Origin: a virus
Length of the DNA stretch: 64,000 nucleotides
Virus record (IMG/VR): IMGVR_UViG_3300044655_001643
Strand: one strand, 5' to 3'
How positions within the stretch are numbered: the first letter of the stretch is position 1; each line of letters starts with the position of its first letter. This document shows, in pieces, positions 10,230 through 35,613 of the stretch. The notes beneath the pieces were generated by a model, which saw only the letters and a program-made list of their open reading frames with translations, was not told the origin of the DNA and did no database searches. Both the position numbers and the translations under genes were made by a program.

Positions 10230-10600
10230 TGGTGGTTTTTTGGCACTAGTCCGGGTGATGCCACCAAACCCACAATTGGTGCCGACTGATTGGATAATAA
10301 GGACAGTCGGCGAAACCTCATCTAGCAATTTAGGCTGCTAGAGCGTAACTTTCATCGTTTGCAGTTACTATTTTTGCTCGGATTACGTCCGTCGCCTTTC
10401 GTGTTGCCTTCTCCACTATCTCATCCTGTCGAAACCATGTCTGGCCCATCAGAAGTGTCCTGCTGTTCACAGGTCGGGAATTCCAATCCTCAGAGTCTTG
10501 TTAAACTCTTACATATCACCCTAAACAACACTTCTGGTGGACCAGGTGGGAGTCGAACCCACGTCCAGAATGCCTTCACTTTGAAGGGATTACAACAATT
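10230..10600 (-). ncRNA. ssrA: Circularly permuted (two-piece) tmRNA, tag ANDESYALAA; outer ends approximate
   Basis: T-arm/acceptor half ...GTGGGTTCGACTCCCACCTGGTCCACCA ends at 10535, upstream of the 5' half GGGCCAGAC.TGGTTTCGAC starting at 10447; G3-U70 pair; tag frame 10362-10330. Confidence 0.92.
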
Positions 10601-10746
10601 CCTTCCTCTTTCATTATTGCATTGAACTCATTTCTTTTGTGGGCATACCAGCCCCATGAACCAAAAAATGTAGTGCCTGGATTCGGACCACATTCTCTCA
10701 AATAATTATCGAGTCTTTTGTAATATTCTTTTTCACTTATTTCCAT
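10576..10746 (-). CDS. Small hypothetical protein (56 aa)
   Basis: MEISEKEYYKRLDNYLRECGPNPG...IPSK; starts 2 nt after upstream stop; below ORF-track cutoff. Confidence 0.55.
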   Translation of the reverse strand: MEISEKEYYKRLDNYLRECGPNPGTTFFGSWGWYAHKRNEFNAIMKEEGIVVIPSK

Positions 10747-31602: not shown

Positions 31603-31697
31603 TGGTAGTAGACCTAGGATTTGAACCTAGCCGTTTCAGCCCATCTGACCGATCTCCAGAGTTTATAAGTCTCCGCCGCACACCAGTGCTGTCTACC
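31603..31697 (-). tRNA. Non-canonical tRNA, anticodon TAT (nominal Ile), long variable arm
   Basis: Acceptor GGTAGAC/GTCTACT-ACCA; T-arm CTAGG-TTCAAAT-CCTAG; loop CTTATAA. Confidence 0.75.
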
Positions 31698-34915: not shown

Positions 34916-34944
34916 ATTCTACAGATATACCAAATATTTGTCAA
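34916..34944 (-). promoter_or_regulatory. Sigma70-type promoter inside tRNA array
   Basis: TTGACA-17-TAGAAT between tRNA-Pro and tRNA-Glu. Confidence 0.8.
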
Positions 34945-34977: not shown

Positions 34978-35054
34978 TGGTCTGAGTAGAGAGAATCGAA
35001 CTCCCGACCTCCTGCTCCCAAAGCAGGCGTTCTACCAGGCTGAACTACACTCAG
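34978..35054 (-). tRNA. tRNA-Pro(TGG)
   Basis: Loop TTTGGGA. Confidence 0.95.
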
Positions 35055-35092
35055 AAATAAAAAACCCCGAAACTTTGTAGGCTTCGGGGTTT
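35055..35092 (-). terminator. Intrinsic terminator/attenuator before tRNA array
   Basis: AAACCCCGAAGC-CTACAAA-GTTTCGGGGTTT-TTTATTT. Confidence 0.88.
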
Positions 35093-35117
35093 GTACAATT
35101 TATCTAATACCTACAAA

Positions 35118-35213
35118 CTATGCACAAACTCCCGTTTGAAATACCCATGATCCATTATCGCTAAATGTGCGATACTCTTGGCAGGGCTTCGTAATGTGCA
35201 TATGTTTGGTCAT
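35118..35213 (-). CDS. Putative attenuator leader peptide MTKHMHITKPCQEYRTFSDNGSWVFQTGVCA
   Basis: 31 codons, 19 different amino acids; 3' end complementary to terminator 5' arm. Confidence 0.65.
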   Translation of the reverse strand: MTKHMHITKPCQEYRTFSDNGSWVFQTGVCA

Positions 35214-35217
35214 AATT

Positions 35218-35613
35218 TTATTTATACATCTTTACTCTGTAAATCATTTCATCCAAAAATATATTGCGGATATATTGTTGAATGTGATCTTGTGTTTCAA
35301 GTATAGCCTGAATGTGTTCCGTTGTCAAGTCTTTGAGTGGCACGTATTTCAAAGGCTGTTTACCATCTTTGCCACGGGTACCCCATTTGAATACCTCACG
35401 AATTACATCATGCGGACCATCAGAGTACACCGAGAGTTCAATATACGGTGCTTCATCATGTACATTACGGCGGGTGTAATCCAAGCCGCCATCAACCATG
35501 TATTCAAGTCCATTAGTGTCCACATAAGTTTTGTAATCGTGCCGATGCATGGACTCAAGAATCGTACCATCGGGTGTACGAATTCGATTACATACGATTC
35601 CTGGTCCACTCAT
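35218..35613 (-). CDS. Conserved phage hypothetical protein
   Basis: I.TPDGT.LES.HRHDY, VDGGLDY.RR, WGTRGK.G. Confidence 0.8.
   Translation of the reverse strand: MSGPGIVCNRIRTPDGTILESMHRHDYKTYVDTNGLEYMVDGGLDYTRRNVHDEAPYIELSVYSDGPHDVIREVFKWGTRGKDGKQPLKYVPLKDLTTEHIQAILETQDHIQQYIRNIFLDEMIYRVKMYK
35219..35226 (-). promoter_or_regulatory. T4 late promoter TATAAATA
   Basis: Perfect consensus 5 nt before leader ATG. Confidence 0.8.

Follow-up and report, generated by a model that had tools for sequence, protein, structure and literature searches.

Leader-peptide attenuation is a textbook mechanism, represented in enterobacteria by the leaders trpL, hisL, thrL, leuL and pheL and by the multivalent leader of ilvGMEDA. 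To our knowledge, the genes that such leaders control are in every case biosynthetic or synthetase genes, and what is sensed is one amino acid or a few. The role of tRNA arrays in phages is debated, and the proposals include codon compensation, replacement of a decaying host tRNA pool and escape from tRNA-cleaving defences. We know of no leader-peptide attenuator described for the tRNA cluster of phage T4 or for other phage tRNA arrays, and a search of the full-text literature returned no description of an attenuator before such arrays, nor of a leader covering all amino acids. The locus analysed here lies in IMG/VR record IMGVR_UViG_3300044655_001643, a stretch of 64,000 nucleotides (nt) from an uncultured phage (the window), in which a short leader open reading frame (ORF) and an intrinsic terminator stand directly ahead of tRNA-Pro, the first of about 20 tRNAs in the array. 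The module is probably an attenuator of some sort, and we slightly favour a ribosome-mediated one that reports general decoding capacity to the tRNA array.

The element has the predicted structural features of ribosome-mediated attenuators but matches no Rfam leader model. The Trp_leader, His_leader and Thr_leader models scored 17.6, 19.2 and 15.1 bits, below thresholds of 41, 49 and 55 (E-values 1.3-6.8), and no T-box was matched in the Rfam search of the region. A preliminary description of this DNA had reported a 31-codon ORF (35213-35118; minus strand, as are all coordinates below unless stated) with 19 amino acids and no Leu, followed by a strong terminator ahead of the first tRNA. Both are present, the terminator as a 12-bp stem and a U-run (35092-35062); a terminator scan counts six GC pairs in the stem, with TTTTTTATTT directly after it. 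The 172-nt region folds beyond its shuffles (z = -4.5). The window is that of an uncultured T4-like phage, whose proteins include a gp32-type single-stranded DNA-binding protein, a primase, a ribonucleotide reductase, PhoH and baseplate-wedge-like proteins. Among the cultured phages of INPHARED, the only DNA match was to tRNA-Pro, and no close relative was found by protein.

It is proposed that RNA would start within the upstream gene, at a conserved sigma70 promoter, and perhaps in addition at the -10-like element TATAAATA, which would give an AUG-first RNA. A ribosome reaching the stop codon would cover region 2 at the end of the ORF, the terminator would form and transcription would end before tRNA-Pro. 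If the leader were untranslated, region 1 near the start of the ORF would hold region 2, and the terminator would again form. A ribosome stalled in roughly the first 22 codons would instead cover or unwind region 1 and leave region 2 free to pair with region 3; this 2:3 antiterminator would sequester the 5' arm of the terminator, and polymerase would read into the tRNA genes. With nearly all amino acids represented in the leader, by roughly one codon each, low levels of almost any charged tRNA would lead to read-through, and the simplest reading is a general decoding-capacity sensor that feeds back on tRNA supply. The module would thus probably let the phage raise tRNA transcription when decoding slows. 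In vivo translation, termination efficiency, the coupling of stalling to read-through and the signal sensed are matters that we infer from the features described below.

A leader ORF and alternative RNA helices at the head of tRNA arrays

Relatives were gathered with four kinds of query: the upstream protein; an invariant ORF core of 17-21 nt, searched for in viral and metagenome contigs; a pattern built from regions 2 and 3 only; and the long-arm tRNA-Ile(UAU) carried by these arrays, a marker unrelated to the leader. Uncultured viral and metagenome contigs yielded about 40 distinct versions in seven diverged lineages: 34 distinct close versions (the main family) and six further lineages, here named by locus as L063; L064; L066 with L069; L112; L099 with L104 and L107; and L105 with L115 and L117. 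The carriers are a group of freshwater T4-like phages. A degenerate synonymous pattern for the ORF core found no further variants, and a promoter-region pattern and the L066 upstream protein, used as queries, found no new lineages. In bacterial and archaeal genomes (one per species), the region 2/3 pattern gave 25 matches, all spurious, with no terminator or leader. The more distant homologues of the upstream 131-aa gene in L010-L013 have no leader and no tRNAs downstream.

Wherever the contig reaches far enough, the module stands at the head of an array of 20-27 tRNA genes, so that its placement ahead of the array, first seen in the window, holds across these relatives. Main-family arrays open with tRNA-Pro, 0-16 nt downstream of the terminator, and those of the other lineages with tRNA-Gln, at 42-100 nt, where the contig includes the array (that of L063 ends within the terminator). 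The genes upstream differ between lineages, which indicates that the module moves together with the array rather than with an operon. A leader-blind scan of all collected loci for a small ORF followed by an intrinsic terminator gave a similar picture: all those lying no more than 260 nt ahead of a tRNA were family members. In these the peptide has 17-20 distinct residues, and the duplex of ORF end and terminator arm has a value of -13 to -22 kcal/mol, against 13-18 residues and -1 to -9 kcal/mol in the 14 modules found elsewhere.

The frame is open in all homologues, with ORFs of 29-38 codons across the roughly 40 versions. Among close versions the ORF changes length by 3 or 6 nt, in frame only (29, 30 or 31 codons), while the spacer past the stop codon, 27 to 31 nt long, varies by single nucleotides. 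Variation at the conserved residues T8, K9, E13 and G21 is synonymous only (ACG, ACA or ACC at T8; GGA, GGC or GGT at G21), and H6 and D19 behave likewise. The in-frame indels and synonymous wobble changes argue that the leader ORF is translated, and with this coding signature the leader ORF of the preliminary description is upheld as real. A non-coding small RNA, or a structured 5' leader of the tRNA precursor in which the ORF is incidental, would account for the strong nucleotide-level conservation and structure (z = -4.5) and for the lack of a Shine-Dalgarno sequence, and a candidate -10 element could put the window transcription start inside the first codons. Such an RNA would not be expected to keep the frame open in every homologue, to restrict ORF indels to multiples of three beside a spacer that varies by single nucleotides, or to vary synonymously at wobble positions; moreover, a GGAG Shine-Dalgarno sequence is present in the lineages of L099 and L105. 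We therefore regard a non-coding RNA as very improbable.

Alternative pairings of the leader RNA were compared in 14 close versions. Folds of the full-length RNA contain the region 1:2 helix together with the terminator in 13 of the 14, and folds of a nascent RNA lacking the terminator 3' arm contain a region 2:3 helix of 12-17 bp in all 14. The latter is the pairing of 35133-35121 with 35097-35086 that had been predicted from the window. A second predicted pairing, between UUUGUAGG just past the stop codon (35117-35110) and the terminator loop (35081-35074), exists in the window, but in relatives the loop reads CCCAAAAA or another sequence, and this part of the prediction fails. The region 1:2 helix, a feature absent from the preliminary description, appears in both minimum-free-energy and RNAalifold structures, and it is strong, with covariation, in the window clade, L005/L009, L064, L105 and L099.

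Complementarity between regions 2 and 3 is kept through sequence turnover, as expected of the covarying antiterminator pairs that the preliminary description had suggested looking for in relatives. By column counts, 83% of antiterminator cells are paired, against 22-51% in slid controls, and 92.7% of terminator cells are paired, three pairs showing compensatory changes. Outside the terminator, region 3 occurs in at least four versions (UUGUAC, UUACAC, CUGUAUAC and AUAUACAAC), all complementary to region 2; against shuffles most gave P values of 0.003-0.05, and a bulged version about 0.15. In the window clade, a C in GUGCA (U in the others) is accompanied by a matching G in region 1 (AUGCAC) and in region 3 (UGUAC). 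The distant lineages provide the strongest evidence for the 2:3 helix. L099 has the same topology built from unrelated sequence, with CGGGGCU at the ORF end pairing with AGGCCCUG of a different terminator, and coordinated differences in all three regions are found in L064 (AUACGCAAACC / GGGGUUUGUGUAU / CACAAACCCC) and L105 (CUUAUCCAAACC / GGGGUUUGAUGAG / CUCAAACCCC). In all lineages the last codons of the ORF and its stop pair with the terminator 5' arm.

A central hairpin within the ORF is unchanged at the nucleotide level in 10 homologues found without it as a probe, and each other lineage has a mid-ORF hairpin of different sequence at the same place. That this hairpin might serve as a pause site for RNA polymerase is a guess.

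Amino-acid content of the leader and the signal it might sense

The window peptide contains 19 of the 20 amino acids, and most close relatives contain all 20 in 31 residues, with extremes of 17 and 18. By comparison, 31-residue windows of the proteins of this phage average about 15 distinct residues; 0.2% of them reach 19 and 0.01% reach 20. Among nucleotide-shuffled stop-free ORFs, 1.4% contain 19 of 20 amino acids in 31 residues. The count of distinct residues is 20 (modal) in the main family, 18 in L063, 19 in L064, 20 in each of L066, L112 and L099, and 19 in L105. Tested by lineage against nucleotide-shuffled stop-free ORFs, this diversity has P values of 0.001-0.08; combined by Fisher's method these give 1e-8 (six lineages) or 2e-6 (four clearly separate lineages), values that overstate independence because the lineages are homologous. 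The higher diversity than shuffled controls in related arrays is the outcome that the preliminary description had looked to as a check on its proposal.

Peptide identity between lineages is 27-38%, and M1 and one Trp are the only invariant residues. Within the main family Gln, Glu and Pro change places among positions 10-13, and Ala has moved from position 24 to 31 in the window clade. On this comparison, amino-acid diversity is kept while the sequence is almost entirely replaced. The leader codons also cover 18-22 of the 20-25 tRNA species of their own array (90-100%), compared with about 14-15 for random gene windows (P <= 0.007). No single codon occurs as a run in the leader.

Two finer claims of the preliminary description did not hold up. 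Repeated residues in the leader had been said to switch codon often, but such switching is no better than in synonymous redraws (P 0.37-0.8 in the window). The absence of Leu from the peptide had been linked to the absence of tRNA-Leu from the window, and among eight arrays this link gives four agreements and four disagreements; L002, for example, has the leader Leu codon UUG and an array tRNA-Leu with anticodon UAG. Neither tRNA-Leu nor tRNA-Phe is called in the window.

The same anatomy of ORF, terminator and antiterminator would also fit a leader-peptide attenuator with a narrower or different signal, such as a single tRNA (for example Pro or Gln, encoded by the first gene downstream), nascent-peptide arrest around the invariant Trp, or initiation status, with amino-acid completeness as a side effect. 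In favour of this are a Trp found in every lineage without exception, the strict retention of the core YRTFSDNGSW in the main family, where G21 changes synonymously, and the constant presence of tRNA-Pro after the main-family leader despite repeated replacement of its sequence. Beyond M1 and the Trp, however, no residue is conserved across lineages. A proline-specific attenuator was rejected, as leaders have zero to two Pro codons at shifting positions and the first tRNA of other lineages is Gln; L042 has no Pro codon yet has tRNA-Pro downstream. A narrower signal would also leave the conserved repertoire of 17-20 of 20 amino acids unexplained, and we consider it unlikely.

Under the reading that we favour, in which general decoding capacity is reported, the leader may be viewed as a 'test track' for the whole decoding apparatus: depletion or cleavage of nearly any tRNA would stall the leading ribosome and switch on the near-complete tRNA set of the phage. 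We put this stronger form forward tentatively, at a little under even confidence. Depletion could come from host shut-off, codon-usage mismatch, starvation or an anticodon-nuclease defence.

Promoters, the tRNA array and the weight of the proposal

The sigma70-type promoter at 35328-35300, a second feature absent from the preliminary description, lies inside the upstream gene (Table 1). Of the 28 distinct leaders whose upstream sequence extends far enough to be assessed, 25 have both hexamers without a nucleotide change, at 86-89 nt before the ATG, amid wobble positions that vary. The promoter is lost in three loci (L009, L044 and L042); L009 and L044 have a new TTGACA promoter past the terminator, and L042 has none such. 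This predicted sigma70 promoter is the better-supported driver of the leader, compared with TATAAATA.

The preliminary description had named TATAAATA a perfect late promoter. The match at 35226-35219 is exact, but the motif is not enriched in the window (three copies found, 3.75 expected), and in most close relatives ATATATA takes its place. The degenerate form ATAWATA is likewise below expectation in the window (16 found, 27 expected), and TATAAATA was rejected as an enriched late-promoter motif. In 14 close relatives ATAWATA is invariant and fixed 5 nt before the ATG. L066 and L112 carry consensus sigma70 promoters, TTGACA-N17-TATAGT and TTGACA-N17-TATAAT, respectively, that end 6 nt before the ATG, and the ATAWATA of the main family is homologous to their -10 region. 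These promoters would start RNA at or next to the AUG. In a separate lineage (L099/L104/L107) a perfect TATAAATA is found again, 22-23 nt ahead of the ATG, so the element in the window may yet be a T4-type late promoter.

Between the terminator and the first tRNA there is no promoter in the window, in most close relatives, in L066 or in L112. The promoter scan also found the separate sigma70 promoter at 34916-34944 that had been noted before, and it is predicted to drive tRNA-Glu and the later tRNAs independently of the attenuator. Four near-consensus sigma70 promoters (TTGACA-N17-TAnAnT, 11/12) lie on the minus strand at 36237-36209, 35328-35300, 34944-34916 and 30894-30866. All four fall on the coding strand, in the 8 kb surrounding the tRNA array, and the other strand has none of that quality. 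The tRNA array thus appears to be split into several host-polymerase transcription units.

A different account of the locus is that the leader is an ordinary small-protein gene that closes the upstream operon with a terminator. Separate promoters or leaky read-through would then supply the tRNAs, and the pairing of regions 2 and 3 would have no part in regulation. The coding-type conservation of the ORF suits such a gene, as do the promoters directly past the terminator in several lineages and the bare terminator that abuts tRNA-Ser, with no leader, in L110. Across lineages, however, it is the RNA topology and the position before the array that are conserved, and not the peptide sequence; the module goes with the array beneath differing upstream genes, and the ORF end stays complementary to the 5' arm of the terminator through sequence turnover. 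Taken together, these observations make a small-protein gene improbable.

Several observations weigh against a general decoding-capacity attenuator, and some bear on how much of the array it could control. The preliminary description had the module gating the tRNA operon; its position at the array head stands, but in the window tRNA-Pro alone precedes the next strong promoter (34944-34916), and several lineages have a promoter past the terminator. The latter are the L005/L009/L023 group, L064 and L105, in which the attenuator cannot be the sole control, and L099 has a weak promoter-like match past its terminator, an uncertain case. About half of the related arrays are without any leader. A Shine-Dalgarno sequence is missing from most leaders, compared with its presence in about half of the genes of the window phage, so efficient translation has to be assumed, by a leaderless start or by coupling to the upstream gene. 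The region 1:2 helix is no better than shuffles in L007, L008, L066 and L063. With one or two codons per amino acid, sensitivity to each may be low. Val, and in some leaders Cys, is confined to the last codons, within region 2, where a stall should favour termination. Some leaders lack one to three amino acids (L042 has 17), and the window leader has Phe codons while its array has no tRNA-Phe, a caveat already raised in the preliminary description. Finally, codon choice tuned to the array, given the peptide, was not significant (P 0.02-0.8, mostly >0.1).

Table 1. Predicted features of the leader locus and its surroundings in the window.
Feature	Coordinates	Strand	Remarks
Upstream gene, 131 aa	35613-35218	-	Ends inside TATAAATA
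Sigma70-type promoter TTGACA-N17-TATACT	35300..35328	-	11/12 consensus; inside 3' end of the 131-aa gene; about 86 nt before leader ATG
TATAAATA, -10-like or T4-late-like element	35219..35226	-	5 nt before ATG; overlaps stop codon of upstream gene
Leader ORF, 31 codons + TAG	35118..35213	-	Encodes MTKHMHITKPCQEYRTFSDNGSWVFQTGVCA; 19/20 amino acids, no Leu; no Shine-Dalgarno
Region 1 CAAACAUAUGCACA, codons 2-7	35195..35208	-	Putative anti-antiterminator arm, partner of region 2
Central hairpin UAUCGC-ACAUUUA-GCGAUA, codons 14-20	35156..35174	-	Within leader ORF
Region 2 GGGAGUUUGUGCAUAGUUUG	35114..35133	-	Last five codons, stop and 4 nt; alternative partners region 1 or region 3
Region 3 UGUACAAACCCC	35086..35097	-	Putative antiterminator with region 2; 3' part is terminator 5' arm
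Intrinsic terminator	35055..35092	-	12-bp stem and 7-nt loop at 35092-35062, then U-run ending one base before tRNA-Pro
tRNA-Pro(UGG)	34978..35054	-	First gene past terminator, no promoter between; called by ARAGORN and Rfam
Next sigma70-type promoter TTGACA-N17-TAGAAT	34916..34944	-	Promoter scan; just ahead of tRNA-Glu

The arrays themselves show further variation. Behind the same conserved leader and terminator stand at least four tRNA-Pro(UGG) sequence types that differ clearly (L001/L002; L003/L004/L006; the window with L007 and L008; L054). This tRNA has been exchanged or has evolved rapidly, but its place directly after the U-run has been preserved. At L005:6545-6736, the leader terminator is followed by a sigma70 promoter, about 170 nt of unassigned sequence and then tRNA-Glu, and tRNA-Pro has moved to 8179. 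A tRNA with a long variable arm and anticodon UAU is common to diverged lineages (window 31603-31697, minus strand; L066:4600-4694; L061:466-560; L064:11970-12066); ARAGORN calls it as tRNA-Ile(tat) in relatives and makes no such call in the window. A 24-nt stretch of this tRNA, shared without change by the window and the L066 lineage, served as the phage-group marker. ARAGORN also calls a permuted (two-piece) tmRNA with the tag peptide ANDESYALAA at 10239-10627 (minus strand) of the window.

Other elements occur at arrays without a leader. In L098, L100 and L102, a GC hairpin, GGGGGG-TTGACAC-GCCCCCC, overlaps the -35 box of the array promoter about 55 nt upstream of the first tRNA-Ser, and this may be a different control element. 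L110 lacks a leader ORF, and a strong intrinsic terminator, AAAAGCCCAGG...CTGGGCTTTTTTTT, lies 10 nt before its tRNA-Ser(tga); a terminator beside a tRNA thus also occurs without an attenuator in these phages.

Comparison with known attenuators

If the proposal is correct, the module would represent a new regulatory logic, in which the supply of tRNA is placed under feedback control by decoding speed, and the first described regulatory input for phage tRNA arrays. As a small element made of sigma70 and intrinsic-terminator parts, it could serve as a general translation-stress reporter.

Among systems that answer the state of the translation apparatus, E. coli pheM/pheST is likewise a case of ribosome-mediated attenuation of one of its components. 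PheM, however, senses only Phe-tRNA through Phe codons, and it controls a synthetase, not tRNA genes. T-box riboswitches similarly use terminator/antiterminator control to answer the charging state of tRNA, but they act without translation, each by binding a single uncharged tRNA directly at its specifier codon. In the arrest-peptide leaders TnaC, SecM and SpeFL, as proposed for the phage leader, ribosome occupancy of a short translated leader decides downstream transcription, and the invariant Trp of the phage leaders recalls that of TnaC. Those systems need a conserved peptide motif and act mostly on Rho-dependent termination or on translation, whereas the phage leader peptide is not conserved between lineages and its terminator is intrinsic. 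With the tRNA cluster of phage T4, the locus has in common a T4-like phage, clustered tRNAs, host-type promoters and processing from precursors.

The likeness to trpL, hisL and ilvGMEDA extends to the short leader ORF, the intrinsic terminator and the overlapping antiterminator, to a stop codon placed so that a terminating ribosome would mask region 2, and, in some of the lineages, to a 1:2 helix that would lead to termination without translation. The leader codons also appear to mirror what the downstream genes supply, although not in the classical form. Where those leaders have a run of regulatory codons, the phage leader has none and instead carries one or two codons for nearly all 20 amino acids. 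Most phage versions lack a Shine-Dalgarno sequence and may be leaderless, and the genes that would be regulated are tRNA genes in a phage rather than those of biosynthetic enzymes. On the 'test track' reading, multivalent attenuation would in this module reach all amino acids and have tRNA genes as its target.

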